A DNA stretch of 50,260 bases from a virus (taxonomy: Duplodnaviria; Heunggongvirae; Uroviricota; Caudoviricetes), in IMG/VR virus record IMGVR_UViG_2728369607_000007, positions 1 to 50,260 of that record; one strand, 5' to 3'. How positions within the stretch are numbered: the stretch's first letter is position 1; every line of letters begins with the position of its first letter. Below the pieces are notes generated by a model, which was not told the DNA's origin, searched no databases, and saw nothing but the letters and a program-made list of their open reading frames with translations. Of this stretch, positions 1-47,655 are shown piece by piece. The position numbers were made by a program, and so were the translations under genes.

Positions 1-1509
1 AGCCGTCTTAACCATCCGAAAGCGGACCTGTCAAAGGGGCAGTACGGAACCGTGGGGCAGGGGCTGCATATCGCCAAAAAACTGCTGCCGTTTATACCGG
101 CGAATGCGGGTATTCTGCTGGTTCCGTGCTGTCGTGGTGGTTCAGCGTTCACCACCGGAGCTGATGGCACATACAGTGACGCTGGCGGTGCCTCGGAGAA
201 TTCAGCGCGCTGGGGTGTGGACAAGCCGCTGTATAAGGACCTTATCGGTCGAACAAAAGCAGCACTGAAGAAGAACCCGAAAAATGTGCTGTTTACCGTG
301 GTGTGGATGCAGGGGGAATTTGATTTTGACGGCACGCCCGGAAATCACGCAGCACAGTTTGGTGCGCTGGTTGATAAATTCCGTGCAGACCTGACGGATA
401 TGGCAGGTCAGTGCGTTGGTGGCTCTGCTGGCGGTGTTCCCTGGATATGCGGGGACACGACGTATTTCTGGAAGCAGAAGAACGAATCCACGTACCAGAC
501 GGTGTACGGCAGCTATAAAAACAAAACGGAAAAGAATATCCATTTCGTACCGTTCATGACGGATGAGAACGGGGTGAATGTGCCGACGAACAAACCGGAA
601 GAAGACCCGGACATTCCGGGTATCGGGTATTACGGTTCGAAATGGCGTGACAGCTCAGCCACCTGGACGTCACAGGACAGGGCGAGCCATTTCAGCACCT
701 GGGCACGCCGGGGGATTATTTCCGACCGTCTGGCAACGGCGATTCTGATTCATGCGGGACGAACCACAGTAAAAGTCGATGCTCCATCTTCTGAAACTGG
801 CGCACCGACGCCATCACCGTCAGAAAATGAAGCGGTAAGCACAACAACACTGCTGTCTTACCGTGCCAGTGAGTCTGAAGGGAGGCTGACCGAACAGGGC
901 TGGAGTGCTGGCGGAGGTAAAGCGGAAATTGTTGCCGATGAAGGTGCAACAGGTGGTACCGCGATGAAGCTGAGCAAGGAGACAGGAGTGGGGTCATGGT
1001 ATCTGGAGCATGATGCCGGTACTGGCGCTGAACTGCTGAAAAATGGCGGTTTAATCAGCTGCCGCTTTAAGGCATCCGGTGAACTGGTAGCAAATCAGTA
1101 TGTCATTGCACTTTACTGGCCGGTTTCCTCTCTGCCGCAGGGTGTCACCCTGACAGGGGATGCAGGGAATAATCTGCTGGCAGCGTTTTACATCCAGACA
1201 GATGCAAAAGACCTGAATGTGATGTACCACAATGCGAAGGTGGCGACAAATAACCTGAAACTGGGAAGCTTTGGCGCATTTGATAACGAATGGCATACGC
1301 TGGCTTTCCGCTTTGCCGGGAATAACAGCCTTCAGGTGACGCCGGTTATTGATGGTCAGGATGGCACACCGTTCACGCTGACGCAGTCACCGGTCAGTGC
1401 ATTTTCGGCGGATAAGTTGCATGTGACAGATATTACCAAAAGTGCGACTTACCCGGTACTGATAGACAGCATTGCGGTGGTAGTGAATAACGCGGACGCC
1501 GCGGCATGA
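1..1509 (+). CDS. Prophage sialate O-acetylesterase-like protein (SASA/NanS-type), 5-prime truncated by window edge
   Basis: Reading frame open from nt 1 (no stop upstream of the GTG at 52); sequence resembles prophage esterases found upstream of lysis genes in lambdoid phages; position just before the holin. Confidence 0.5.
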   Translation, partial: SRLNHPKADLSKGQYGTVGQGLHIAKKLLPFIPANAGILLVPCCRGGSAFTTGADGTYSDAGGASENSARWGVDKPLYKDLIGRTKAALKKNPKNVLFTVVWMQGEFDFDGTPGNHAAQFGALVDKFRADLTDMAGQCVGGSAGGVPWICGDTTYFWKQKNESTYQTVYGSYKNKTEKNIHFVPFMTDENGVNVPTNKPEEDPDIPGIGYYGSKWRDSSATWTSQDRASHFSTWARRGIISDRLATAILIHAGRTTVKVDAPSSETGAPTPSPSENEAVSTTTLLSYRASESEGRLTEQGWSAGGGKAEIVADEGATGGTAMKLSKETGVGSWYLEHDAGTGAELLKNGGLISCRFKASGELVANQYVIALYWPVSSLPQGVTLTGDAGNNLLAAFYIQTDAKDLNVMYHNAKVATNNLKLGSFGAFDNEWHTLAFRFAGNNSLQVTPVIDGQDGTPFTLTQSPVSAFSADKLHVTDITKSATYPVLIDSIAVVVNNADAAA

Positions 1510-18647: not shown

Positions 18648-19391
18648 ATGACACAGACTGAATCAGCGATTCTGGCGCATGCCCGGCGGTGTGCGCCAGC
18701 GGAGTCGTGCGGCTTCGTGATAAGCACCCCGGAGGGCGAACGGTACCAGTCCTGCGTGAATATCTCCGCAGAGCCGGAGGCGTACTTTCGTATTGCGCCG
18801 GAAGACTGGCTGCAGGCACAGATGCAGGGGGAGATTGTGGCGCTGGTCCACAGTCATCCCGGTGGTCTGCCCTGGCTGAGCGAGGCGGACCGGCGGCTGC
18901 AGATAAAGAGTGCCCTGCCCTGGTGGCTGGTCTGTCGGGGTGAAATTCACCGCTTCCGCTGTGTGCCGCACCTGACCGGACGGCGCTTTGAACACGGTGT
19001 GACGGACTGTTACACCCTGTTCCGGGATGCATACCATCTGGCGGGGATAACGCTGCCGGATTTTGTGCGTGAGGATGACTGGTGGCGCAACGGCCAGAAC
19101 CTGTACCTGGACAACCTGGCGGAAAACGGCTTTTGCCGGGTGTCTCCATCCTGTGCACAGGCAGGCGATATTCTGCTGTGCTGCTTTGGTTCATCGGTGC
19201 CGAATCATGCCGCCATTTACTGTGGCAACGGTGACCTGCTTCACCATATACCTGAACAACTGAGTAAACGGGAGAGGTATTCTGAAAAATGGCAACGACG
19301 AACGCATTCTGTCTGGCGTCACCGCCACTGGTCCGCATCTGCCTTCACGGGGATTTACAACGATTTGGTCGCCGCATCAGCCTGTATGTGA
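18648..19391 (+). CDS. K: Tail assembly protein K (NlpC/P60 and JAB/MPN-like)
   Basis: Similarity to lambda gpK; internal ATG 18648 of ORF 18387..19391; 3-prime end overlaps I by ~100 nt in another frame. Confidence 0.8.
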   Translation: MTQTESAILAHARRCAPAESCGFVISTPEGERYQSCVNISAEPEAYFRIAPEDWLQAQMQGEIVALVHSHPGGLPWLSEADRRLQIKSALPWWLVCRGEIHRFRCVPHLTGRRFEHGVTDCYTLFRDAYHLAGITLPDFVREDDWWRNGQNLYLDNLAENGFCRVSPSCAQAGDILLCCFGSSVPNHAAIYCGNGDLLHHIPEQLSKRERYSEKWQRRTHSVWRHRHWSASAFTGIYNDLVAASACM

Positions 19392-19969
19392 ACACGGCAG
19401 CGGAGGCCATCCGTGCCCTGTCGCAGCAGGTGCCGGGATTCCGCTGTCAGATGAACGAAGGCTGGTACCAGATACGTATTGCCGGTGAGGATACCGCGCC
19501 GGAGGCGGTGTATGCCCGTCTTCATGAACCGCTGAGCGGGAGAGCCGTGATACATATTGTACCGAGGCTGGCAGGGGCCGGGGGAAATGGTGTTTTTCAG
19601 GTGGTGCTGGGGGCTGCAGCCATCGTGGGCTCTTTCTTCACCGCCGGTGCAACGATGGCGTTGTGGGGCGCAGCCCTGAGTGCCGGAGGGCTGACTGCCA
19701 CCACGATGCTGTTCTCACTGGGTGCCAGCATGATACTGGGTGGTGTGGCCCAGATGCTGGCCCCGAAGGCAAAGACGCCGGAGTACAAAAGCACGGATAA
19801 CGGCAGACAGAACACGTATTTTTCGTCACTGGACAACATGATTGCTCAGGGGAATCCGGTGCCGGTGCCTTACGGTGAAATGCTGGTTGGTTCACGACGG
19901 ATATCCCAGGACATCAGCACCCGTGATGAGGGCGGTGACGGGAAAGTGGTGGTTATCGGGCGGGGATGA
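19289..19969 (+). CDS. I: Tail assembly protein I
   Basis: Strong similarity to lambda gpI (…FGRRI.L.V.T.AEAIRAL…GSFFTAGAT…). Confidence 0.85.
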   Translation: MATTNAFCLASPPLVRICLHGDLQRFGRRISLYVNTAAEAIRALSQQVPGFRCQMNEGWYQIRIAGEDTAPEAVYARLHEPLSGRAVIHIVPRLAGAGGNGVFQVVLGAAAIVGSFFTAGATMALWGAALSAGGLTATTMLFSLGASMILGGVAQMLAPKAKTPEYKSTDNGRQNTYFSSLDNMIAQGNPVPVPYGEMLVGSRRISQDISTRDEGGDGKVVVIGRG

Positions 19970-20830
19970 AAAATAAAAAAAATCCCGCAGTGCTCTGTAG
20001 CTGCGGGAAGAGATACGAAGATTAACTTTAAGGAATTTTTCATTATTCTGGCAGATGAACTGTAACGCAGCGTGATTATGAGCACTACAGTCAGTGTGCG
20101 GAAATGTGAATAAACTCAGAATTTTTATTCACGGGAAGGGAGGGGCCGGATATCGGTGGCAGAGGACAGAAGGCATCATGCGGGTTCAGGGGATAAAAAA
20201 ATCCCGCAGTACTCCGTGCTGCGGGAAGAGAACGATGTTGACTAACCTGAAGGCGTTTTATTTTTATTGACCCGAAGAAACTGTAACCTGCCGGAATGCA
20301 CTCTGCCACGGAGAATGACGGAAAATGTGAAGAAAATCAGAGTTTTTATTTATCCCGTACATTCGTCTCTGGCGACAGAGTGGCGTCAGTAATGTCCGTG
20401 ATACTGAGGGGGGAATTAAAAAATCTCCCGTAATACACCTGGATATTGACGGGAGAAACGAATAGTCACCTTAAGGAGTAGTTTTGATTATTGCCTGTAA
20501 TCAGCGGGTGAATTGTAACGTATGGTGATTATGAGTGCCACAGGTAATTTGCAGAAATGTGAATAAATTCAGAATTTTTATTCACAGGAAGGGGCTGCGG
20601 GATATCGGTGGCAGAGGACAGAAAATATCAGGCCGGGTTTAAGGGATAAAAAAATCCCGCAGAGTCAGCGGAGCTGCGGGAGAGAACGATGAAGATTAAC
20701 GTTATGGAGTTATTTTTCAGGCATCAAAAAAGTAACGCAGCGTCATTATTGCGGCTACAGGCAATTTGCAGAAATGTGAAGAATTTCAGAAATTTTATTC
20801 CGTCATGACACAGGCACCCTCCGGGGTGCC
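19970..20830. repeat. Tandem array of four ~220-230 bp units between tail genes I and J; each unit carries an A-run plus GC hairpin (terminator on minus strand) and a GTGAATAAA-N10-TTTATTCAC palindrome
   Basis: Hairpins CCCGCAG…CTGCGGG at 19984, 20203, 20425 (variant), 20656; palindromes at 20106-20133 and 20559-20586 (degenerate in the other two units); conserved GGATATCGGTGGCAGAGGACAGAA in units 1 and 3. Confidence 0.8.
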
Positions 20831-20883
20831 TGTTGTTTTTGGGCATAAACAGATTCAGACATCAGACAGGAGAGGGGGACAGA

Positions 20884-23800
20884 GTGGGTAAAGGGGGCGG
20901 CAAGGGGCACACACCGCGTGAGGCGAAGGACAATCTCAAGTCAACGCAGATGATGAGCGTGATTGATGCCATCGGTGAGGGACCGGTGGAAGGTCCGGTG
21001 AAGGGACTGCAGAGTATTCTGGTGAACAAAACCCCGCTGACGGACACGGACGGTAATCCCGTGATACACGGTGTGACCGCCGTCTGGCGTGCCGGGGAGC
21101 AGGAGCAGACACCGCCGGAAGGCTTTGAGTCCTCCGGGGCAGAAACCGCACTGGGCGTGGAGGTGACGAAGGCAAAGCCGGTGACGCGCACCATCAAGTC
21201 AGCGAACATTGACCGTCTGCGGGTCACCTTCGGGGTGCAGTCACTGGTGGAGACCACCTCAAAGGGTGACCGTAATCCCTCTTCTGTCCGCCTGCTGATT
21301 CAGCTTGAGCGTAACGGTAACTGGGTGACGGAGAAGGATGTCACCATTAACGGCAAGACCACCTCGCAGTACCTGACGTCGGTGATTCTGAATAATCTCC
21401 CTGAGCGCCCCTTTAACATCCGGATGGTCAGGGTGACGGCGGACAGTACCACGGACCAGCTGCAGAACAGAACGCTGTGGTCGTCATACACCGAAATCAT
21501 CGATGTGAAACAGTGCTACCCGAACACGGCCATTGTGGGGCTGCAGGTGGATGCGGAGCAGTTCGGTGGCCAGCAGATGGTGGTGAACTACCATATCCGC
21601 GGCCGCATCATTCAGGTGCCGTCAAACTATGACCCGGAAAAACGCACCTACAGCGGTATCTGGGACGGGAGTCTGAAACCGGCATACAGCAATAACCCGG
21701 CCTGGTGCCTGTGGGACATGCTGACCCACCCGCGCTACGGCATGGGAAAACGCCTGGGGGCGGCGGATGTGGACAAGTGGGCGCTGTATGCCATCGGGCA
21801 GTACTGCGACCAGACGGTCCCGGATGGTTTCGGGGGCACAGAGCCGCGGATGACTTTCAATGCGTACCTGTCACAGCAGCGTAAGGTGTGGGATGTCCTG
21901 GGGGATTTTTGCTCGGCGATGCGCTGTATGCCGGTATGGAACGGCCAGACGCTGACGTTCGTTCAGGACCGTCCGTCGGATGTGGTGTGGCCGTACACCA
22001 ACAGCGATGTGGTGGTGGATGATAACGGCGTGGGGTTCCGCTACAGCTTCAGTGCCCTGAAGGACCGGCACACGGCGGTGGAGGTGAATTACACTGACCC
22101 GCAGAACGGCTGGCAGACCTCCACTGAACTGGTGGAAGACCCGGACGCCATCCTGCGCTACGGGCGCAACCTGCTGAAGATGGATGCGTTCGGCTGTACC
22201 AGCCGCGGTCAGGCCCACCGTGCCGGACTGTGGGTGATAAAGACCGAACTGCTGGAAACGCAGACGGTGGATTTCACGCTCGGGTCACAGGGGCTGCGGC
22301 ACACGCCCGGTGACATCATTGAAATCTGTGATAACGACTATGCCGGGACCCTGACCGGCGGACGCATCCTGTCCATCGATGCCGCCAGCCGCACACTGAC
22401 GCTGGACCGAGAGGTGACACTGCCGGAAGCAGGGGCATCGACGGTGAACCTGATTAACGGCAGCGGTAAGCCGGTGCGCGTGGACATCACTGCACACCCC
22501 GCCCCGGACCGGATACAGGTCAGCGTCCTGCCTGATGGCGTGGAGACATACGGTGTGTGGGGACTCTCCCTGCCGTCACTGCGTCGTCGCCTGTTCCGCT
22601 GTGTTTCCATCCGGGAAAACACGGACGGCACCTTTGCCATCACGGCGGTGCAGCATGTGCCGGAAAAAGAAGCCATTGTGGATAACGGGGCCCGCTTTGA
22701 GCCGATGTCCGGCTCACTGAACAGCGTCATCCCGCCGGCAGTGCAGCACCTCACGGTGGAGGTGAGTGCCTCAGACGGCCAGTATCTGGCGCTGGCGAAA
22801 TGGGACACGCCGCGGGTGGTGAAGGGGGTGCGCTTCAGTCTGCGCCTGACCAGCGGAAACGGTGAAAACAGCCGCCTGGTGACCAGCGCCATCACGGCGG
22901 ACACGGAGCACCGTTTCAGTGGCCTGCCGCTCGGGGAATACACCCTGACGGTCAGGGCGATAAACAGCTACGGCCAGCAGGGCGAACCTGCCACCACCAC
23001 ATTCCGGATTAATGCACCGGCGGCACCGGCCAGCATTGAACTGACGCCGGGCTATTTTCAGATAACGGTGGTCCCGCATCCTGCGGTGTATGACCCGACG
23101 GTACAGTATGAATTCTGGTTCTCAGAAAAACGCATCACGGACACGGCACAGGTGGAAACCTCTGCCCGTTATCTGGGGACCGGCAGCCAGTGGAGCGTCT
23201 CCGGCCCGCACATTAAGCCGGGGAAGGATTTCTGGTTTTATGTGCGCAGCGTCAACCTGGTGGGGAAATCTGCGTTTGTGGAGGCCAGCGGGCAGGCCAG
23301 CAATGATGGTGAAGGGTATCTGGAAATTTTCCGTGGGCTGATAGATGAGGCGCTGCTGGGGAAGGCACTGAAAGAGCGTATTGATGCGTCAGCCCTGCGT
23401 ACTGAGGTCACGCAACTGGAAGAAGACATCCGCCAGCGACTGGAGACGGATGTTGCGGAAGTGACCCGAAAAATCGGGGAGGCGGAAAACAGCCTCACGC
23501 AGCTGGTTGCGAAAAAGAATGAGGACCAGACGCTGGCCATCGCGCAGGTGAGTCAGCAGGTGGACCGGGTGAGCAGTGAAATCACACAGACAGTCAGCCA
23601 GAGCACGGAGGAAAACGCCAGGCAGATAGCGCAGGTCCGCCAGTACGTGGATGACAAAGGGAGTGAAATCACCTCGACCACGGATAAAAAGCTGGAAGAC
23701 CAGAGCGCGACCATACAGCAGATACAGCAGGTCCAGTCAGACACGAATGATGAGCTGGCAGCGCTGTACATGCTGAAGGTGCAGAAAACGAAAAACGGCA

Positions 23801-24570
23801 TTCCGTATGTTGCCGGTATTGGTGCGGGGATTGAGGATGCTGATGGCCAGACGCTGAGCAATATTCTGCTGCAGGCGGACCGTATCGCGATGATTACCCC
23901 GGAGAACGGCAACACCACGCCGCTGTTTGTGGCACAGGGGAATCAGCTGTTCATGAACGACGTGTTCCTGAAGCGACTGTTTGCGGTGAGTATCACGTCA
24001 TCCGGCAATCCCCCGACGTTCTCCCTGACGCCGGAGGGCAGGCTGACGGCCCGCAATGCGGACATCAGCGGACATATCAGTGCGAACTCGGGCACGCTGA
24101 ATAATGTCGTGATAGCGGAGAACTGCACGATAAATGGCACGCTGAAAGCGGAGAACATTATTGGTGATCTGGTGAAATGTGCCGGGGTGGCTTTTCCGGT
24201 GGATGGTAGTCACCTTGCGAACGGTACACGAACGCTGACGGTGTATGACGATCACAGCTTTGACCGGCAGATTATAATCCCGCCGATAATCTATGTCGGG
24301 TCAAAACAGGAATCCCGCACCAGTAATGACATCTGGACAGAGTGCTTCCTGCATGTTGATCAGAACGGACGCCGGATTTATTCAGGCAGGTCAGTGGAAG
24401 AGCCGGGAGTTTTCAGCGGGATCATCGATATGCCAGCTGGCGGTGGTCATATCACCCTGACTTTTACCGTGAGCTCACGGCGTCAGAATAACAGTTGGGG
24501 CAGTTCACGAATCAGTAACCTTCAGGCGATAGTGGTGAAGAAAAACAGCGCGGGGATCAGTATCCGCTGA
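20884..24570 (+). CDS. J: Tail tip/host-specificity protein J
   Basis: Very strong similarity to lambda gpJ from N-terminus ([19 protein letters not shown]) to C-terminus; GTG 20884 matches lambda J N-terminus (ORF-track start 20833 is TTG). Confidence 0.9.
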
Positions 24571-40679: not shown

Positions 40680-40702
40680 GCCGGAGCAATCCGGCTTTTT
40701 TT
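40680..40702 (+). terminator. Rho-independent terminator (GCCGGAGCAATCCGGC + T-run); second copy at ~41025-41047
   Basis: Perfect 6-bp stem, 4-nt loop, 7 T. Confidence 0.6.
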
Positions 40703-40797
40703 GCGTCATTTGAAATGGTATGGCGCACTACTGGCTTTTCGTCACGGTCCGGCATAGTTACTATCTGAAACAAACAGACACAACAGAGGAAAAAACA

Positions 40798-41022
40798 ATG
40801 CCGACGAAATTTGATGAGATATTAAAACAGCGTGATAAATACCATGCTGACAACATGGAGACGATGAACATCACTGATTACCGCGCATTCCTGGAAACGG
40901 GGGCGCTGATTGAAAAGGATCATCATGGTTTTGTTCGTTGCGCGCTATCCGGTGAAATGCTGGCGGTAAATCCTGAACAGACAGATGCATTGATAGAATT
41001 TCTGAAAGGGATCAGGGACTGA
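40798..41022 (+). CDS. Hypothetical protein (74 aa)
   Basis: Internal ATG of ORF 40720..41022 with GAGGAAAA RBS; followed by terminator copy. Confidence 0.4.
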   Translation: MPTKFDEILKQRDKYHADNMETMNITDYRAFLETGALIEKDHHGFVRCALSGEMLAVNPEQTDALIEFLKGIRD

Positions 41023-41313
41023 GCACCCATACAGCCGGAGCAATCCGGCTTTTTGTTATTTTTTGTAAATTATTTGTTCGTGGTTGTTCCACGTTGTTCA
41101 CTGAGCGGATCGGCATATTTTACCCGAACTGAATCATGATTATTCTCGCCCGTGGTGCCAGGACGCTGGGGCCACTTTCCCGCCTGTTAATGTGCTCGCC
41201 AATATTCATTACCAGGCGGGAAAACGATCGGTGCGATTGCTGATTCCCTTATGAAAAACGGTTGAGTTTTTGCCGCGTCCTGGAGTTCCTTACTTAACCC
41301 CAGGACTTTTTTT

Positions 41314-42471
41314 ATGCCGAGAATAATCGAATTACGCCAGCAGAAAACCGCCATTAAAAATCAGATGCGCGACATGCTGGAGAACGCGGAAAAAGAAAAC
41401 CGCAGTCTTAACGATGCTGAGGGCGCAAAATTTGACGAATTACGCGCTAAAGCTGAATCCCTCGATAAAGACATTTCCCGCCTTGAAGCCATTGCAGACG
41501 AAGAGCGCAGCAAGCCAGGTAAAAGCAGCCAGACCACTGACCCCGCAGAACTACGCAGCTACATTCTGACAGGTGAAACCCGCGCATTAAGTACAGGCGT
41601 TCCCGCTGATGGTGGTTATACCGTTATCCCCGAACTGAACACCGAAATCATGCGAATGCTGGCGGATGAGTCCACCATGCGCCGCATCTGTACCGTGAAA
41701 AAAATCAGCAGCAACGAGTTTAAGCAGCTTGTTTCCGCTGGCGGTGCGACCGTTAACCACGGTGAAGAGGGTAAGGCACGCGAACAGACCAGCACCCCGC
41801 AGATTAACGAGGTGAGCATTAAGCTGTATCCGGTCTATGCGTACCCGCGCACCACACAGGAAATCGTGGATTTTTCCGATGTGGACATCCTTTCATGGCT
41901 GACGGGTGAGATTGGCGACACCTTCACGGAAACCGAAGAAAGCGATCTGGTTGTGGGCGACGGTGACAAAAAAGCAAAAGGTTTTTTATCCGTACCCCGT
42001 GCAGAGAAGAACGACAAAGAGCGTGATTTTGGTACGTTGCAGGTAATTAAACCTTCCGAATCTCTGGCGTGGACATCTGCGGACCCGCTGATCGACCTGA
42101 AATTTGCATTACGTAAAAAATACCGCAAAAACGCGGTCTGGGTGGTTAACTCCACGACGGCGGCAAAACTCCAGAAGGTGAAGAACGCGAACGGTGATTA
42201 CATCTGGCGTGACCGTTTACAGGCGGGTGATCCTGATACGTTGCTGGGCCTTCCGGTCGAATATCTGGAGTTTATGCCTGATAACGTTATTGCCCTGGGT
42301 GACTTCAAACGCGGTTACTACATTGTTGATCACGAAACAGGTGTTCGCACCAGACCGGACAACCTCACAGAGCCGGGCTTCATCAAAATTTTCACGCAGA
42401 AATATTTAGGCGGTGGCGTGGTGGATTCGAACGCGATCAAGATTCTGGAACTGCCACAGGACGACGATTAA
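41314..42471 (+). CDS. Major capsid protein, HK97 fold/family
   Basis: 385 aa with N-terminal coiled-coil delta-like region and HK97-type capsid core; followed by protease and portal. Confidence 0.8.
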   Translation: MPRIIELRQQKTAIKNQMRDMLENAEKENRSLNDAEGAKFDELRAKAESLDKDISRLEAIADEERSKPGKSSQTTDPAELRSYILTGETRALSTGVPADGGYTVIPELNTEIMRMLADESTMRRICTVKKISSNEFKQLVSAGGATVNHGEEGKAREQTSTPQINEVSIKLYPVYAYPRTTQEIVDFSDVDILSWLTGEIGDTFTETEESDLVVGDGDKKAKGFLSVPRAEKNDKERDFGTLQVIKPSESLAWTSADPLIDLKFALRKKYRKNAVWVVNSTTAAKLQKVKNANGDYIWRDRLQAGDPDTLLGLPVEYLEFMPDNVIALGDFKRGYYIVDHETGVRTRPDNLTEPGFIKIFTQKYLGGGVVDSNAIKILELPQDDD

Positions 42472-42510
42472 CAGCATACAGAAGGGGCTTAAAAGCCCCT
42501 TTAGTGTTTT

Positions 42511-43083
42511 ATGGGTGAAAAAATTATGAAGAGTATGGAAATCCGGTCATCGGAAATCACCACCAGCGGCAGCAACACGCTTACAGGCTACGTTGTTCGC
42601 TGGGATAAGCTTTCAGAACTGTTATGGGGTGAGTTTTACGAAAAATTCCAGCGGGGGGCGTTTACTGAATGGCTTGCGGCGGGTAATGACGTTCGCGGCC
42701 TGTATGAGCATGACCACAGTATGTTACTGGGGCGCACCCGTTCCGGCACGCTGAAACTGGAAGAGGATGAAACAGGGTTACGCTTTGAACTGACCCCACC
42801 GGATACCAGTACAGGGCGCGACGTTATCGAACTGGTTAAACGTGGTGATATATCCGGCATGAGCTTTGGCTTTCGCTCCCGTAAGGATGTATGGGATACC
42901 ACAACAGATCCATGCGTGCGCACCGTGCTGGTGGCGGAACTGTACGAAATTACCGTTACATCGGTACCGGCTTACCCCGATTCCGGCGTGGAGCTGGCCC
43001 GCCGTTCCCTGTATGAGCAGCACCCCGAAAAAATGCCGCGTGCGGATAATCGCCGCTGGTGGGTGGATTTAGCGGGGGTGTGA
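42511..43083 (+). CDS. Prohead maturation protease (HK97 family)
   Basis: HK97 gp4-like pattern (…LYEHD.S.LLGRT…G.D….G.ISGMSFGF…); alternative starts at 42526 or 42535. Confidence 0.75.
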   Translation: MGEKIMKSMEIRSSEITTSGSNTLTGYVVRWDKLSELLWGEFYEKFQRGAFTEWLAAGNDVRGLYEHDHSMLLGRTRSGTLKLEEDETGLRFELTPPDTSTGRDVIELVKRGDISGMSFGFRSRKDVWDTTTDPCVRTVLVAELYEITVTSVPAYPDSGVELARRSLYEQHPEKMPRADNRRWWVDLAGV

Positions 43084-43084
43084 T

Positions 43085-44296
43085 ATGTGGCCTTTCAGAA
43101 GAAAAAAAGAGCAGCGCAGCATGACGCTTGATGAATTTATGGCGCTGGCTGGCACATCGAACACGGGGGCGGGTGAATACGTATCATCGGGGACAGCGGA
43201 ATCACTGCCTGCCGTCATGAACGCCGTTACGGTCATCTCTGAGGCGGTGGCTACTATGCCATGCTACCTGTACCTGGTACGCAATGAGAAGGGGAAGGAG
43301 GCCCGCGAGTGGCTTGATTCTCATCCGGTCGATCACATCCTCAACGAGCGCCCGAACGCATGGCAAACCCCCTACCAGTTTAAGCGAATGATGATCCGCC
43401 ACTGCCTGTTAAACGGTAATGCTTATGCGGTTATTCAGTGGGGGCGTGATGGTTTTCCGGCGGCTTTACATCCTTACCCGCCGCAGTCGGTGAACGTGGA
43501 GCAGACAGGCGAACACAACTGGCGCTATTGCATCACTGACGCCTACACCGGAAACACCCACAACTATTTACCGTGGGAAGTACTTCACCTTCGTTACTCC
43601 ACGGATGACGGCTTTATGGGGCGCTCACCTGTAACCATCTGCCGCGAATCGCTGGGGCTTGGGCTGGCCCAACAACGCCACGGCGCGAGCGTGATGCGTG
43701 ATGGCATGATGGCGGCAGGGGTTATCACGTCAGGCGAATGGCTGGACGGCGTGAAGGGCAAACAGGCATTAGCCGCACTGGAACGCTACAAAGGGGCCAG
43801 AAACGCCGGAAAAACGCCCATCCTTGAAGGGGGGATGAGCTATCAGCAGCTGGGCATGAGTAATCAGGATGCTGAATGGCTGGCCTCCCGTCGCTTTACC
43901 ATTGAAGACATCGCCCGAATGTTCAACGTCTCGCCGATTTTTTTGCAGGAATACAGCAACAGCACCTACAGCAATTTCAGCGAGGCAAGCCGCGCATTTC
44001 TCACCATGACGATGCGCCCGTGGCTGGCGAACTTTGAGCAGCAGATAAAAAACGCCCTGCTGGTGGCCTCGCCTGTACCTGGTATCCGGTATCAGGTGGA
44101 GTTTGACAGCGCGGACCTGTTACGGGCCACACCTGGCGAACGCTTTGCCACCTATGAGCGCGGCATCAAATCCGGCGTTATGTGCCCGAACGAAGCCCGC
44201 GAACGTGAAGGACTGTCACCGCGTGATGGTGGTGATGAGTTCAGTCAGGCATGGAAACAGGAAGTAAAAATCAGCGAGGGAGAAAAACCGGAATGA
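43085..44296 (+). CDS. Portal protein (HK97 family)
   Basis: 403 aa, HK97-type portal pattern; gene order. Confidence 0.8.
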   Translation: MWPFRRKKEQRSMTLDEFMALAGTSNTGAGEYVSSGTAESLPAVMNAVTVISEAVATMPCYLYLVRNEKGKEAREWLDSHPVDHILNERPNAWQTPYQFKRMMIRHCLLNGNAYAVIQWGRDGFPAALHPYPPQSVNVEQTGEHNWRYCITDAYTGNTHNYLPWEVLHLRYSTDDGFMGRSPVTICRESLGLGLAQQRHGASVMRDGMMAAGVITSGEWLDGVKGKQALAALERYKGARNAGKTPILEGGMSYQQLGMSNQDAEWLASRRFTIEDIARMFNVSPIFLQEYSNSTYSNFSEASRAFLTMTMRPWLANFEQQIKNALLVASPVPGIRYQVEFDSADLLRATPGERFATYERGIKSGVMCPNEAREREGLSPRDGGDEFSQAWKQEVKISEGEKPE

Positions 44297-44631
44297 ACAT
44301 AGGGCGACTGCGTGACAGGATAACGATTCAGACCCTGAAACAGACCAGAGCCATGACGGGCGAAATACTCGAAACGTGGGAGGACGGTCACACACTCTGG
44401 GCAAGCGTGAACATGATCAGCAGCAAGGAGGCCATTTCATCGGGCGCAGAGCTGGCGATTGGTACCGTAAGGATCTGGATACGGTACCGGAAGGACATCA
44501 ACGCCACCAGCCGGATAAAGGTCAGTACGGGGCCGCTGGCGGGGCGTGTACTGAATATCATCGGGCAGCCGTTGCCGGATGTCGCCAGGACACGCCTTGA
44601 AATTCTTTGTCGTGAGGGCGCGGAAAAATGA
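44293..44631 (+). CDS. Head-tail adaptor/head closure protein
   Basis: ~112 aa; conserved RDRITIQ … IRYR pattern; start overlaps portal stop. Confidence 0.6.
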   Translation: MNIGRLRDRITIQTLKQTRAMTGEILETWEDGHTLWASVNMISSKEAISSGAELAIGTVRIWIRYRKDINATSRIKVSTGPLAGRVLNIIGQPLPDVARTRLEILCREGAEK

Positions 44632-44924
44632 CAGAAGAACTTATCACCCTGGAAGAAGTGAAACTCCATTGCCGTATCGATGGAGACGAGGAAGACCAGT
44701 TAATCAGCGGATACATTGCCGCATCGCTTGAGGCGTGCCAGATACACATAGGCAGGCGCTTTGATGACGGGCTGGAGTTCACGCCAGCCATAAAGATTGG
44801 CTGCATGATGTTTATCGCTCACCTGTATGAGAATCGCCAGATTGTCGCGGATAACGCAAAAACACGCGTACCCATGACGATTGGCGCACTCTGGACGGCT
44901 TACCGTGATGTGGGGGTGTACTGA
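44628..44924 (+). CDS. Head-tail connector protein (gp6-like)
   Basis: 98 aa; position and N-terminal pattern of gp6-like connectors. Confidence 0.55.
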   Translation: MTEELITLEEVKLHCRIDGDEEDQLISGYIAASLEACQIHIGRRFDDGLEFTPAIKIGCMMFIAHLYENRQIVADNAKTRVPMTIGALWTAYRDVGVY

Positions 44925-45364
44925 TGCCGTGGCAACCATTAAGACGATGCACAGAACCAGGCTGTAACAGGCGCGTTAAATCCGGCAAGTGTGAGGAGCA
45001 CAGGCGGGCAGCATGGCGTGCAGAGGATGCCAGACGAGGACACCGCCGCGCGCGTGGATATTCCAGACAGTGGGACAAATACCGCGCCATGTATCTGAGT
45101 AAAAACCCGTTATGCGTGCGATGCCTTGAGAAGGGGATATATACGCCCGCCGTGGTGGTGGATCACATTATCCCGATTAATGGCGGTGATGATGTTCTCT
45201 TCTGGCCCGAATGGAACCATCAACCATTGTGCCAGGCGTGTCATAACCAGAAAACGAAATGGCTTGATCCGGCAACAAAAAGCAAGCGTGCCGCAGGTGG
45301 ATTTCGTGAAGAGGAAGAACGGGCCGCTAACCGCAATAACTGGATGTATGACGCTGATGAATGA
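44924..45364 (+). CDS. HNH endonuclease (terminase-associated)
   Basis: Cys-rich zinc-finger and HNH motif (…VDHIIPINGG…WN.QPLCQACHN.K); immediately upstream of terminase genes. Confidence 0.8.
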   Translation: MPWQPLRRCTEPGCNRRVKSGKCEEHRRAAWRAEDARRGHRRARGYSRQWDKYRAMYLSKNPLCVRCLEKGIYTPAVVVDHIIPINGGDDVLFWPEWNHQPLCQACHNQKTKWLDPATKSKRAAGGFREEEERAANRNNWMYDADE

Positions 45365-45653
45365 GCGGGAACAAAACCGCCTTATCCGTGGACTTATAAG
45401 GCAGCGTGACGCATGGAAGACACAGGAAACAGGGCATAAAGATAAAGCGTCAGGACGCGCAGAACGCATCACAGCGAAGCGATTAACCGACCGTGACCGC
45501 GAGGTTATGGAATGTTTCCGCAATCGCTGATGAGGCTGTATGACGGGGTGGGGGGCGTTTTCAGGACAAACCCGACCCCGCCGGGCACCGAACGCCTCCT
45601 CAAATTTTTATGCACGGGAATTTTTTGAAAAATAATCTGGCGAAAAAATAAGC

Positions 45654-46010
45654 ATGTCAAGACCACCGAAAGCCCCCGCCTACCTGGATGATATCGCCGT
45701 GAAGCAGTGGCGGGAAAAATCTAGGCAGCTTGCGGAACGGGGAGACCTGACCCCCGCCGACTGGAGCAATCTGGAACTGTATTGTGTCAACTACTCCATT
45801 TACCGGAAAGCCGTTGCAGACCTTGCGGCGCGCGGGTTCAGCATTGTTAACAGTCAGGGCGGTGAGAGCAGAAACCCCGCATTAAGCGCAAAATCCGACG
45901 CTGAAAGAGTGATGATAAAAATGGCCTCTTTGCTCGGTTTTGACCCGATAAGCCGCCGTAAAAATCCACCGGAAACAGAAGAAGAGGACGAGCTTGACCG
46001 CCTGGAATAA
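45654..46010 (+). CDS. Terminase small subunit (P27 family)
   Basis: 118 aa, P27-type TerS pattern; overlaps TerL start. Confidence 0.7.
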   Translation: MSRPPKAPAYLDDIAVKQWREKSRQLAERGDLTPADWSNLELYCVNYSIYRKAVADLAARGFSIVNSQGGESRNPALSAKSDAERVMIKMASLLGFDPISRRKNPPETEEEDELDRLE

Positions 46011-47655
46011 GTACGCAGAAGACGTAAAAACGGGCAAAATTCCGGCCTGTAAACGGCTGAAACAGGCCGTTAAACGGTACTTTTCGGACCTTGAAAGCCC
46101 CCTTTACACGTTCGATCGTGAGGTTGTGGAGCGGTTTATTGCCTTTTCCAGGGTGTGCCCGCACGTAAAAGGGCCGATGCGTGGCAGATCCATTGAGCTG
46201 GAGCCGTGGCAGCAGTTCGCCTTTGCGTGCATCCTCGGCTTTAAGGTTAAGGCCACCGGACGGCGCAAATACACGAGCGCCTTTATCGAAGTGCCGCGCA
46301 AAAATGCGAAATCCACGACCGCCGCGATTCTGGCTAACTGGTTTCTGATTATGGAGAACGGGCAGCAGGATATTTACACCGCAGCGGTGAGCCGTGACCA
46401 GGCGCGGATCGTTTTTGATGATGCGCGTCAGATGTGCCTTTTATCCCGACCGTTACGCAGGCGGGTGAATATTCAGGCCCACAAGGTGATGCACCCGAAA
46501 AGCAACAGCCTGTTAAAGCCGCTGGCAGCAAAAGCGGCAACCATCGAGGGCACAAACCCAAGCCTTTCCATCGTGGACGAATACCACCTACACCCCGATA
46601 ACGGCGTTTATTCCGCGCTTGAGCTGGGGATGGGCGCACGTCCCGAAGGGCTGTTATTTGCCATTACCACATCGGGCAGTAACGTCGTTTCAGCCTGTAA
46701 GCAGCACTATGATTATTGCTGCCAGATCCTGGACGGCGAAGAGGTCAACGATTCAATTTTTGTGCTGATTTACGAGCTGGACGACGAAAACGAGGTTGAT
46801 GATCCGGCGATGTGGATAAAGGCTAACCCTAACATCGATGTTTCCGTGGATCGTGAAAAACTGGCCTCAACCATCCAGAAAGCGCGGGGTATTCCGTCGC
46901 AATGGGTGGAGATGATGACAAAGCGATTTAATATCTGGTGCCAGGGGGCTACCCCGTGGATGGGTAACGGCGCATGGGCTGAGTGTGCCGGAACGTTCAC
47001 GGAGGAAGATTTACACGGGCAGGAGTGTTACGCGGGGCTGGACTTATCATCAACCAGCGATATTTCCAGCGTGTGCTATGCCTTTCCGGTCGGTAAAAAT
47101 ATCATGCTGGTTTCCCGTCATTATCTGCCGGAGTTCCAGCTACAGAACCCCGCCAATAAAAACCGCGCTGTCTATCGCCAGTGGGCTAAAGCGGGCTGGA
47201 TACGCACAACGCCAGGTGACTGCATTGATTACGACCGGATCAGAGATGACATCATGCAGGATGCGGAGAAATTTAATATCAGGCTGGTGGGCTTTGATAC
47301 GTGGAACGCCACGCATCTCAGGACGCAATTACAGGGGGCTGGTTTTGAGGTGGAGCCGTTCCCGCAAACCTACCTCAGATTCAGTCCGGCGGCGAAATCG
47401 TTCGAAGTTTTTGTTAACCGCAGGGTGATTGTGCATCGTGGCGATCCGGTGTTGTCCTGGTCGATGAGTAACGTCGTGATGCAGAGTGACGCGAACGCCA
47501 ATATCAAGCCGAACAAGAAAAAATCACCGAACAAGATAGACCCGAGCGTAGCGGCGCTGATGGCGTTTGGTACATTCCAGGCAGAGCATGAGGATTTTGC
47601 TTTTGATATAAGCGACAGCCACCGCCAGAAACTGGAAGAATTTAGCGGGGTGTAA
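45994..47655 (+). CDS. Terminase large subunit
   Basis: 553 aa, ATPase and nuclease regions; start is TTG in the ORF track (true start uncertain). Confidence 0.85.
   Translation: MTAWNKYAEDVKTGKIPACKRLKQAVKRYFSDLESPLYTFDREVVERFIAFSRVCPHVKGPMRGRSIELEPWQQFAFACILGFKVKATGRRKYTSAFIEVPRKNAKSTTAAILANWFLIMENGQQDIYTAAVSRDQARIVFDDARQMCLLSRPLRRRVNIQAHKVMHPKSNSLLKPLAAKAATIEGTNPSLSIVDEYHLHPDNGVYSALELGMGARPEGLLFAITTSGSNVVSACKQHYDYCCQILDGEEVNDSIFVLIYELDDENEVDDPAMWIKANPNIDVSVDREKLASTIQKARGIPSQWVEMMTKRFNIWCQGATPWMGNGAWAECAGTFTEEDLHGQECYAGLDLSSTSDISSVCYAFPVGKNIMLVSRHYLPEFQLQNPANKNRAVYRQWAKAGWIRTTPGDCIDYDRIRDDIMQDAEKFNIRLVGFDTWNATHLRTQLQGAGFEVEPFPQTYLRFSPAAKSFEVFVNRRVIVHRGDPVLSWSMSNVVMQSDANANIKPNKKKSPNKIDPSVAALMAFGTFQAEHEDFAFDISDSHRQKLEEFSGV

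Follow-up and report, generated by a model that had tools for sequence, protein, structure and literature searches.

Prophage sRNAs and tandem sRNA genes

PasB of the EPEC O127:H6 strain E2348/69 is an 83-nt, Hfq-dependent small RNA (sRNA) that was seen in RIL-seq, where its partners are both core and accessory mRNAs (Pearl Mizrahi et al. 2021, PMC8550237, Table S6 and Fig. 3A). A 2026 preprint reports that pasB copies lie at least 28 kb apart and that a prophage region usually carries a single Pas sRNA gene (Zhu, Shabalina & Storz, doi 10.64898/2026.05.13.724894). In the O157:H7 strain Sakai, the ~85-nt RNAs EcOnc22, EcOnc23 and EcOnc24 are encoded by prophages Sp15, Sp14 and Sp11, respectively, and are destabilised in an hfq deletion mutant (PMC4104026, Table S2). 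EcOnc22 was still listed in 2021 without a known function (PMC7873438). We found no literature that links EcOnc22 to PasB.

Phage morons are autonomous promoter-gene-terminator cassettes that lie between late genes of lambdoid phages, and LhrC1-4 of Listeria are tandem sRNA paralogues. OmrA/OmrB of E. coli and PrrF1/PrrF2 of Pseudomonas are likewise arranged head to tail, each gene with its own promoter and terminator (doi 10.64898/2026.05.13.724894), as is predicted for the genes described below. The AgvB and AsxR anti-sRNAs of Stx phages resemble those genes in being prophage-encoded, in binding Hfq and in belonging to the same phage group, but they are 51-60 nt long, end in the terminator GCCCGAACCCAYUCGGGC and occupy another locus (Tree et al. 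2014, PMC4104026).

The I-J tail gene spacer

We analysed a 50,260-nucleotide stretch of a Caudoviricetes genome (IMG/VR record IMGVR_UViG_2728369607_000007), referred to here as the window. Positions 19970-20883 (914 bp) form a non-coding spacer between two lambda-type tail genes and contain four diverged head-to-tail units of ~220 bp each. The flanking genes are as follows.

19289..19969, plus strand: tail assembly gene I, left flank (Pfam Lambda_tail_I, E 1.1e-14)
20884..24570, plus strand: gene J, tail tip / host specificity, right flank, with a GTG start at 20884

Gene J carries the Pfam domains FNIII-A_GpJ, Ig_J, Phage-tail_3, Phage_Tail_Tip and Ig_GpJ_C, and in a 99.5%-identical locus (L001) the gene I flank is annotated as a tail assembly protein. 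These Pfam flanks and a repeat search, which recovered four-copy repeat families at spacings of 221, 232 and 217 bp, confirm the four-unit tandem array described in the initial annotation. The same annotation described I and J as close neighbours in lambda-like tail operons, and the lambda gap is indeed 60 bp and contains no unit. Tandem Repeats Finder detected no ~220-bp repeat in the window, because the copies are only ~60-80% alike among themselves. An A-run plus GC hairpin begins at 19975, 20195, 20418 and 20648.

Because of its repeats and of several overlapping ORFs (40-72 aa), MITE/IS fragments or small-protein genes were considered as the origin of the array. However, no terminal inverted repeats surround the units, and the unit or units lay between I and J at 21 of the 21 loci located and inspected. 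The unit lengths are not multiples of 3, the ORFs differ from unit to unit, and the array-overlapping ORFs have no PHROGs match. The missing repeats, fixed locus and non-repeated ORFs effectively refute this reading, whose IS/MITE part the initial annotation had named as a possible refutation of its proposal, and we regard it as extremely unlikely.

By sequence, the units are instead members of the known PasB/EcOnc22-24 sRNA family, each unit corresponding to one predicted gene. To find the family in the window, we used a covariance model (R1) built from 8 relatives, none of them from the window. Across the 50 kb, R1 gave exactly four matches; each is a minus-strand match at a predicted site, and that for unit 3 is borderline.

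19975..20052, minus strand: unit 1 predicted sRNA gene, 78 nt (R1 match 19976-20052, 73 bits, E 2.7e-12)
20195..20273, minus strand: unit 2 predicted sRNA gene, 79 nt (R1 55 bits, E 8.6e-9)
20418..20505, minus strand: unit 3 predicted sRNA gene, 88 nt (R1 match 20419-20497, 20.8 bits, E 0.039)
20648..20722, minus strand: unit 4 predicted sRNA gene, 75 nt (R1 83.4 bits, E 2.6e-14)

PasB and EcOnc22-24 themselves are one family at one fixed phage locus. PasB maps to NC_011601 1466343->1466261 on the minus strand, directly between a tail assembly gene and gpJ, and in Sakai Sp15 this same gene is matched by the Northern probe for EcOnc22/23/24. In the current Sakai record, the EcOnc22 peak as published falls ~130 nt off the gene, and the EcOnc22 link therefore rests on the probe sequence, whose first 23 nt also match window positions 20678-20700 exactly. 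The same antisense placement between I and J was found in E2348/69, Sakai Sp15 and six other prophages or phages. The usual spacer of single-copy relatives is ~240 bp, with the sRNA transcribed against the tail operon. The window units resemble PasB in locus (immediately downstream of gene I, ahead of J and opposite in strand to the tail operon), length class, terminator, -10 position and the upstream AAATGTGA-N6-TCAGA site. In contrast to the window, with four genes in 914 bp, E2348/69 has one gene in a 240-bp spacer, which is homologous to the window units, and EcOnc22-24 are present in single copy in each prophage.

Identity to PasB is 62-79% for the window RNAs, with the differences concentrated in the 5' part. 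Unit 1 (76% identical to PasB) has its closest relative in the phage 1720a-02 copy (82-85%), and unit 2 is 71% identical to PasB. Unit 3 is the most diverged (62%), has a different terminator stem (CUCCCGU/ACGGGAG) and is 85% identical to unit 3 of a three-unit array in STEC2018-553. Unit 4 is nearly the same as the EcOnc22 copy of Sakai prophage Sp15 (1 nt different, 99% identity). Each unit is closest to a single unit from a different phage lineage.

All four predicted RNAs fold with a GC hairpin at the 3' end followed by U6-8 (U8 in unit 1, U7 in unit 2), which agrees with the earlier reading of the A-run and hairpin as a minus-strand terminator; the unit 4 fold has a z-score of -3.1. A simple terminator scan picked up one of the four minus-strand hairpins, and missed the other three because their loops exceed 8 nt. 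The 5' parts are A/U-rich and mostly unstructured, and carry CUCCUU (anti-Shine-Dalgarno-like) and UUAAUCUUC motifs, the latter absent from unit 2. RNAalifold applied to 11 family members recovered the terminator stem only. The apparently broken terminator pairs of the unit-3 type are artefacts, because MAFFT misaligns that terminator, and therefore no covariation claim is possible. The idea of small non-coding minus-strand transcription units is upheld by homology to the verified Hfq-dependent sRNAs PasB and EcOnc22/23/24, although the predicted lengths are 75-88 nt instead of the ~150-200 nt first proposed.

The Rfam search suggested at the outset gave no match in 19800-21000 at gathering thresholds (Rfam 15), and relaxing the E-value to 10 yielded chance-level matches only; we were unable to find an Rfam model for PasB or EcOnc22. 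Identity with AgvB or AsxR was rejected, as there is no sequence similarity and the Rfam models of both families miss the window. The PasA and PasC probes are also absent from the window. Scanning for AAATGTGAANNNNNNTCAGANNTTTTATT returned one chance match, in a Flavobacterium, among GTDB species-representative genomes and no match in IMG/VR. In the collections covered, the element is therefore not seen beyond strain-level Escherichia data.

Predicted promoters and a conserved upstream site

Transcription starts were predicted from one RNA-seq-derived 5' end in another strain, E2348/69. In all 12 units and relatives compared, a TAnnnT hexamer is found 46 nt from TGTGA, and this offset rule, when applied to E2348/69, comes within 1 nt of the PasB 5' end reported in the literature. 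Matches to a -35 element are poor; a promoter scan reported GTGGCA-18-TACAAT for unit 3 (20541->20512, minus strand).

20059..20064, minus strand: unit 1 -10 box TACAGT, predicted transcription start 20052
20280..20285, minus strand: unit 2 -10 box TACAGT, predicted transcription start 20273
20512..20517, minus strand: unit 3 -10 box TACAAT, predicted transcription start 20505
20729..20734, minus strand: unit 4 -10 box TACTTT, predicted transcription start 20722

Upstream of each -10 box is a CRP-like site of 22 bp with 2-3 mismatches over 16 specified positions (no strand is assigned to these sites).

20102..20123: unit 1 CRP-like site AAATGTGAATAAACTCAGAATT, centre at -60.5, differing from AAATGTGA-N6-TCACATTT at two positions
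20323..20344: unit 2 CRP-like site AAATGTGAAGAAAATCAGAGTT, consensus match at the fixed spacing
20555..20576: unit 3 CRP-like site AAATGTGAATAAATTCAGAATT, consensus match at the fixed spacing
20772..20793: unit 4 CRP-like site AAATGTGAAGAATTTCAGAAAT, consensus match at the fixed spacing

The AAATGTGA-N6-TCAGA core is invariant in the four units and in all relatives examined, with constant spacing to the -10 box. The window contains four copies of TGTGA-N6-TCAGA, one in each unit, where 0.11 would be expected, and the repetition is therefore above chance. The CRP consensus with up to 3 mismatches likewise has four window matches, one per unit, against 0.25 expected. The site is centred at -60.5 from the predicted start and at -59.5 from the published PasB RNA-seq 5' end, both starts being approximate. 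Class I cAMP-CRP sites centre near -61.5, -71.5, -82.5 or -92.5, so the position is close to the first of these. The right half-site is always TCAGA, not TCACA, and the core can also be read as TGAA-N4-TTCA, a dyad of the LacI/GalR type; the site may therefore serve a regulator other than CRP. Binding of the conserved site by cAMP-CRP at a class I position is nevertheless the most likely reading of the motif. PasB is more abundant in overnight LB than in exponential DMEM, a comparison that also involves growth phase, and the CRP-repressed sRNA Spf behaves oppositely.

The initial annotation had singled out two other features of the units, a palindrome and a box (neither assigned to a strand).

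20106..20132: palindrome GTGAATAAA-N9-TTTATTCAC in unit 1, overlapping the CRP-like site
20559..20585: palindrome GTGAATAAA-N9-TTTATTCAC in unit 3
20148..20171: junction box GGATATCGGTGGCAGAGGACAGAA, first copy, array-specific
20600..20623: junction box GGATATCGGTGGCAGAGGACAGAA, second copy, array-specific

As first described, the palindrome is intact in units 1 and 3, but its spacer is N9 and not N10. Neither units 2 and 4 nor the single-unit relatives conserve its right arm, and the conserved candidate for a protein-binding module is instead the overlapping CRP-like AAATGTGA-N6-TCAGA site. The GGATATCGGTGGCAGAGGACAGAA box, thought to be conserved in each unit, is present in units 1 and 3 only and is an array-restricted junction sequence. 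It was found in 73 of 5426 genomes, all of them array-bearing and always in unannotated DNA, and no relatives of it were detected outside arrays in the E. coli genomes searched. The possibility that the inter-unit tails are relics of gene I 3' ends was rejected, as alignments to eight I ends were no better than shuffles. The tails gave two significant matches only: TTTATTCA(C/G)GGGAAGG, which strain CCUG 73778 also has ahead of J, and GGCGACAGAGTGG, which recurs at the ribosome-binding site and start of J.

Together, these results suggest that the I-J spacer probably comprises four separate genes arranged head to tail, each encoding an Hfq-dependent, base-pairing sRNA of the PasB/EcOnc22 family. 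In the prophage, these RNAs would be read from the opposite strand to the late (tail) operon, which is silent. Each minus-strand cassette would consist of an activator-type site, a weak -35 (GTGGCA-like), TAnnnT, the RNA and its terminator. The activator-type AAATGTGA-N6-TCAGA site at about -60.5 would most likely be bound by cAMP-CRP, and the 75-88-nt RNA would end in a Rho-independent terminator with the U6-8 tail that is typical of Hfq-dependent sRNAs. Homology, anatomy and conservation are established here, whereas expression of units 1-3, a CRP regulator and separate targets for the paralogues are inferred. The RNAs diverge mainly in the 5' (seed) part, so the array should widen the target range, raise the dose, or both.

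This organisation resembles that of OmrA/OmrB, PrrF1/PrrF2 and LhrC1-4, with common 3' parts and regulatory input and diverged 5' parts. Those are chromosomal core genes of unrelated sequence, whereas the window array is a prophage cassette within a structural operon, and the copy number of such cassettes is 1, 3 or 4 depending on the strain. Like a moron, each cassette is a self-contained unit between two genes that are adjacent in lambda, and a self-contained transcription unit could be expressed from a repressed prophage. Morons differ in that their cargo is protein; here it is RNA, and the cassettes point against the operon and occur in several copies.

Distribution, constraint and possible roles

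Four-unit arrays were found in ~80 of 5426 complete E. coli genomes, mostly of LEE-negative STEC serotypes, including the lineages O91:H21, O113:H21, O104:H21, O22:H8 and O178:H19. Array-bearing genomes often carry the array twice, in two prophages, and array-bearing LEE-negative STEC have up to 8-12 family genes per genome. Unit conservation in related phages, whose absence would have counted against the original proposal, is widespread. Although the sRNA family is established in the literature, we found no published description of its tandem arrays.

The array could also be mostly dead duplication, with one working gene (probably unit 4, of the EcOnc22 type) and decaying relics beside it, stacked by unequal recombination among the I-J spacers of co-resident lambdoid prophages. 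The partial similarity of the units, each nearest to a different phage lineage, fits such stacking, and unit 3 is weak in the family model while unit 2 has lost the UUAAUCUUC motif. The substitution contrast is also only weakly significant: among 11 arrays, variable sites make up 4.2% of sRNA and promoter segments against 8.1% elsewhere (Fisher p 0.02-0.09, arrays non-independent). However, all four units have a -10 box, an equally spaced upstream site and an intact terminator, and the whole array is kept in its many host genomes. The differently composed three-unit array of STEC2018-553 retains every element as well. The four-unit array is 95-99.5% conserved among the 11 arrays compared, whose lineages are not independent, with no change in any CRP-like core and one change in the -10 boxes. 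Of 44 insertion columns, 43 fall outside the sRNA and promoter segments, which are thus largely spared by indels. We therefore consider mostly dead duplication unlikely and favour four working genes.

Next, we considered a role in cis or against other phages, in which the minus-strand RNAs or convergent transcription would tune J after induction, or the RNAs would hit the late mRNA of incoming phages. In the anti-phage variant, the four diverged units would cover four phage lineages with a matching I-J unit. The RNAs are perfectly complementary to the I-J stretch of the late tail-operon mRNA, position and orientation are kept in all relatives, and every unit resembles the single unit of a different lineage. 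A conserved hairpin and T-run on the opposite strand, just before J, also fit this reading.

20810..20840, plus strand: GC hairpin and T-run just upstream of the J ribosome-binding site (terminator scan)

This hairpin (-26.1 kcal/mol, z -4.1) is kept in single-unit spacers and, in arrays, in the last unit only. Against a cis or anti-phage role, the mRNA partners of PasB in published RIL-seq are numerous, core and accessory, and encoded in trans, which is the pattern of a trans-acting sRNA, and lambda thrives although it lacks the unit. The four 5' regions paired with the 74 translation start regions of the window no better than shuffled controls did, so no pairing with start regions inside the window is favoured. 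On balance such a role appears quite improbable, and four base-pairing sRNA genes remain the preferred explanation.

A broader and more speculative extension, which we think unlikely, is that the I-J junction is a recombinational hotspot for stacking sRNA cassettes. Arrays of 3-4 units, with 2-3 arrays in some LEE-negative STEC genomes, would then form a sugar-responsive (CRP-controlled) multi-seed regulator, and each paralogue, besides acting on host mRNAs, may also be antisense to the tail-operon mRNA of a different competing phage lineage with the matching unit. If this is true, the antisense paralogues would amount to RNA-based competition between phages.

PasB and EcOnc22 are among the more abundant Hfq-bound prophage sRNAs in EPEC and EHEC and have no known function. 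The conserved, probably catabolite-responsive promoter provides a concrete condition and a mutant (crp deletion) in which to examine them. In LEE-negative STEC lineages, the family has expanded to tandem arrays of diverged paralogues. BLAST surveys with 28-nt words and >75% query coverage undercount such diverged sRNA genes, which bears on the published view that Pas sRNAs spread by repeated phage acquisition only, without tandem multiplication. Spacers with 1, 3 and 4 units constitute a natural series for the origin of new sRNA seeds.

Repeat units between tail genes I and J

The array lies between two plus-strand tail genes, and each of its four diverged units opens, read along the plus strand, with an A-run and then a GC hairpin:

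19289-19969, plus strand: tail gene I, Pfam Lambda_tail_I match
19970-20883: I-J spacer
19975, 20195, 20418 and 20648, plus-strand positions: starts of units 1, 2, 3 and 4
20884-24570, plus strand: tail gene J, GTG start and complete set of GpJ domains

An O178:H19 E. coli locus that is 99.5% identical to the window locus is annotated in the order tape measure, tail protein, L, C40 peptidase (K), tail assembly protein, a gap of ~0.9 kb, and J. The initial annotation describes I and J as close neighbours in lambda-like tail operons, and the gap in lambda is indeed only 60 bp; the extra 0.85 kb in the window is therefore an insertion relative to lambda. A repeat search of the window returned families of four copies whose starts are 221, 232 and 217 bp apart. 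The ~220-bp period is absent from the output of Tandem Repeats Finder because the copies are only ~60-80% alike. When the unit starts were folded as minus-strand RNA, all four gave a hairpin followed by U6-8, in agreement with the proposal that each unit carries a minus-strand terminator. That the units might be fragments of an IS or MITE had also been raised. We rejected mobile-element fragments and small ORFs as explanations, having found no flanking inverted repeats and no PHROGs match for the ORFs.

Relationship to the PasB and EcOnc22 small RNAs

By megablast, many Stx phages and E. coli prophages have one such unit, within a ~240-bp I-J spacer. The 83-nt sRNA PasB of EPEC E2348/69 is encoded in prophage PP6 between E2348C_1436 and E2348C_1437 (NC_011601 1466343->1466261, minus strand; Northern probe AATCCCGCAGTGATCGCGGAGCT; PMC8550237, coordinates in Table S6). 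These coordinates place it, in the RefSeq record, 6 nt past the tail assembly protein gene and 153 nt ahead of gpJ, and the 240-bp E2348/69 spacer can be aligned over its full length with each of units 1-4. In EHEC Sakai, Sp15 (the Stx1 phage) carries EcOnc22, and the homologues EcOnc23 and EcOnc24 lie in Sp14 and Sp11, respectively (PMC4104026, Table S2); EcOnc22 gives a Northern band of ~85 nt and is destabilised without Hfq (PMC4104026). Its published probe starts with GGGAGAGAACGATGAAGATTAAC (PMC4104026); in the Sakai Sp15 I-J spacer this sequence is on the tail-sense strand, and in the window it has one exact match, at 20678-20700. The published EcOnc22 peak coordinates lie ~130 nt off the gene in the current Sakai record, an offset we attribute to an older sequence version, and the identification relies on the probe. 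PasB and the EcOnc22 probe both map to homologous I-J spacer genes, and PasB and EcOnc22-24 are therefore one family. This link was not found in the searchable literature; the 2021 table lists no EHEC homologue for PasB (PMC8550237, Table S6), and a 2026 preprint on Pas sRNAs does not mention EcOnc (doi 10.64898/2026.05.13.724894).

Conserved blocks were read from a 12-sequence alignment and comprise the terminator, the RNA body (plus strand GAAGATTAA...AAGGAG; in RNA CUCCUU...UUAAUCUUC), a GTAAC block, a CCAC block and AAAATGTGAAGA-N-TTCAGAA-TTTTATT. The interval from GTAAC to TGTGA is gap-free in all 12 sequences. On the minus strand, the GTAAC block reads as a TAnnnT hexamer (TACAGT, TACAAT, TACTTT, TAGTGT or TACCGT) that is always 46 nt from TGTGA. 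Predicting the start 7 nt downstream of TAnnnT puts it 1 nt away from the PasB 5' end as published; the -35 region is GTGGCA-like and poor. The predicted RNAs of units 1-4 are 78, 79, 88 and 75 nt long, and folding gives each an A/U-rich, largely open 5' part with a terminal hairpin and U-run.

We built a covariance model, with the terminator stem as its structure, from eight family members, all from genomes other than the window (E2348/69, Sakai Sp15, BP-4795, 1720a-02, PhiR12_2, isolate AF10 and two units of E. coli STEC2018-553). Across both strands of the whole 50-kb window there were exactly four matches, each coinciding with a predicted minus-strand gene:

20648-20725, minus strand: unit 4, 83.4 bits, E 2.6e-14
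19976-20052, minus strand: unit 1, 73 bits, E 2.7e-12
20195-20273, minus strand: unit 2, 55 bits, E 8.6e-9
20419-20497, minus strand: unit 3, 20.8 bits, E 0.039

A single nucleotide separates unit 4 from the Sakai copy. Identity to PasB is 76%, 71% and 62% for units 1, 2 and 3, which share 61-79% identity among themselves. The closest relative differs by unit: for unit 1 it is phage 1720a-02, and for units 2 and 3 it is the correspondingly numbered unit of a three-unit array.

Two other RNA genes were detected in the window by Rfam:

36183-36259, plus strand: isrK, 66 bits
36281-36368, plus strand: C4 antisense RNA, 77.6 bits, directly after isrK

An integrase gene (32679-33929) precedes this pair, and an AAA_25 primase/helicase-like gene (37803-39212) and a large terminase gene (45994-47655) follow it. 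This context (32679-47655) belongs to a second integrated element, which is distinct from the lambdoid prophage and weakly similar to small satellite-like phages such as vB_KppS-Ant. The window itself starts inside a sialate O-acetylesterase-like ORF (52-1509, plus strand; SASA and DUF6645), followed by lysis and terminase genes. This esterase, holin and lysozyme neighbourhood is described as the flank of pasA and pasC (doi 10.64898/2026.05.13.724894); neither the PasA nor the PasC Northern probe matches anywhere in the window.

A CRP-like site and other elements of the spacer

Every unit has a 22-bp site that departs from the CRP consensus at 2-3 positions, and these four matches, one per unit, are the only ones in the window (0.25 expected). 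The CRP-like site, TGTGA-N6-TCAGA, is centred at ~-60.5 from the predicted start, near the classical class-I CRP position of -61.5, and all examples have TCAGA as the right half-site. A weak -35 with an activator site near -61.5 is the usual layout of CRP-dependent promoters. The core also reads TGAA-N4-TTCA, so a regulator other than CRP is possible. Overnight LB cultures contain more PasB than exponential DMEM cultures (PMC8550237), the opposite of the pattern of the CRP-repressed sRNA Spf across these cultures. This agrees with CRP control of PasB and points the same way, though it is no proof. Judged from the sites, the upstream regulatory input common to the four units is probably cAMP-CRP.

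Two elements described in the initial annotation fall outside the cassette. The palindrome, given there with an N10 spacer, is actually GTGAATAAA-N9-TTTATTCAC; in units 1 and 3 alone it lengthens the CRP-like site, and no conservation is seen elsewhere. The GGATATCGGTGGCAGAGGACAGAA box, thought to be conserved in each unit, is present in units 1 and 3 only, between the promoter of either unit and the terminator of the next. This junction box is limited to array-bearing genomes (73/5426), always in unannotated DNA, and occurs with three changes in a three-unit array. Local alignments against the I gene ends did not support its origin as a gene I relic. The 342-bp I-J spacer of E. coli CCUG 73778 (L009 773-1114) holds one PasB gene, an extra bidirectional-looking hairpin (AAAACCCCGGTATC...GATACCGGGGTTT) and a sequence, GGATTATCGGTGGGCATGA, that resembles the junction box.

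One further hairpin lies on the opposite strand to the predicted RNAs:

20810-20840, plus strand: hairpin and T-run, -26 kcal/mol, z -4.1, immediately upstream of the J ribosome-binding site

It is kept in all single-unit I-J spacers examined and, in arrays, in the last unit only. It looks like a terminator ahead of the essential late gene J, and Q-modified polymerase presumably reads through it.

Distribution, constraint and proposed function

Of 5426 complete E. coli genomes, 79 carry the array over at least 80% of the four-unit query, at 95-99.5% identity; the number is 86 when units 2-3 alone are the query. The hosts are mostly cattle- and human-derived STEC (e.g. O91:H21, O113:H21, O104:H21, O22:H8, O178:H19 and O43); all records of the phage collection searched lacked the array. 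Several genomes have it in two different prophages; NZ_CP027342 has arrays at 3593597-3594049 and 3914607-3915652 (3.59 and 3.91 Mb). Junction box copies per array-bearing genome have a median of 4 and reach 6, which corresponds to two to three arrays. Many array-bearing genomes, with the array in two (up to three) prophages, hold 8-12 PasB-family genes each. STEC2018-553 (NZ_CP075665; L015 672-1384) has a 713-bp spacer with EcOnc22-like, BP-4795-like and unit-3-type units, and the -10 box, CRP-like site and terminator are kept in all three. Because the composition of this array differs, arrays come in more than one build. The conserved promoter motif had no relevant match in species-representative genomes or IMG/VR, in line with published work that confines Pas sRNAs to strains of Escherichia and Shigella.

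The sRNA family is already known from work of 2014, 2021 and 2026. Tandem arrays, the diverged paralogues of units 1-3 and the conserved CRP-like promoter site were not found in the searchable literature. In the 2026 preprint, the smallest distance between pasB copies is 28 kb, and BLAST was run with 28-nt words and >75% query coverage (doi 10.64898/2026.05.13.724894). These settings would probably miss units 1-3.

We then asked how the segments vary among 11 four-unit arrays. The CRP-like cores carry zero substitutions and the -10 boxes one, which makes the match better. Within the sRNA and promoter segments 4.2% of sites vary, against 8.1% elsewhere (Fisher p 0.02; 0.09 without gap-only columns), and 43 of 44 insertion columns fall outside these segments. 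The 11 arrays are close relatives and their indel columns derive from few events, so this alignment is modest evidence of constraint on the sRNA and promoter segments. At 20250-20251, in the presumed seed within the single-stranded 5' region of its predicted RNA, unit 2 of the window carries a strain-specific change of two bases: it reads GCCUUCAGG, where the other ten arrays have GCCAACAGG. It is improbable that most units are decaying duplicates, given that every unit retains all promoter and terminator elements and that the array is conserved across genomes.

We consider it likely that the array comprises four autonomous, Hfq-dependent sRNA cassettes expressed from the repressed prophage. 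RIL-seq indicates trans action for PasB, and for this reason the RNAs of the units would be expected to act in trans; we regard as very improbable the alternative that they are chiefly antisense to the tail-operon mRNA of their own or competing phages. The four cassettes would be transcribed while the prophage is repressed, and their products would be Hfq-dependent base-pairing RNAs with diverged 5' regions under a common upstream input, probably cAMP-CRP.
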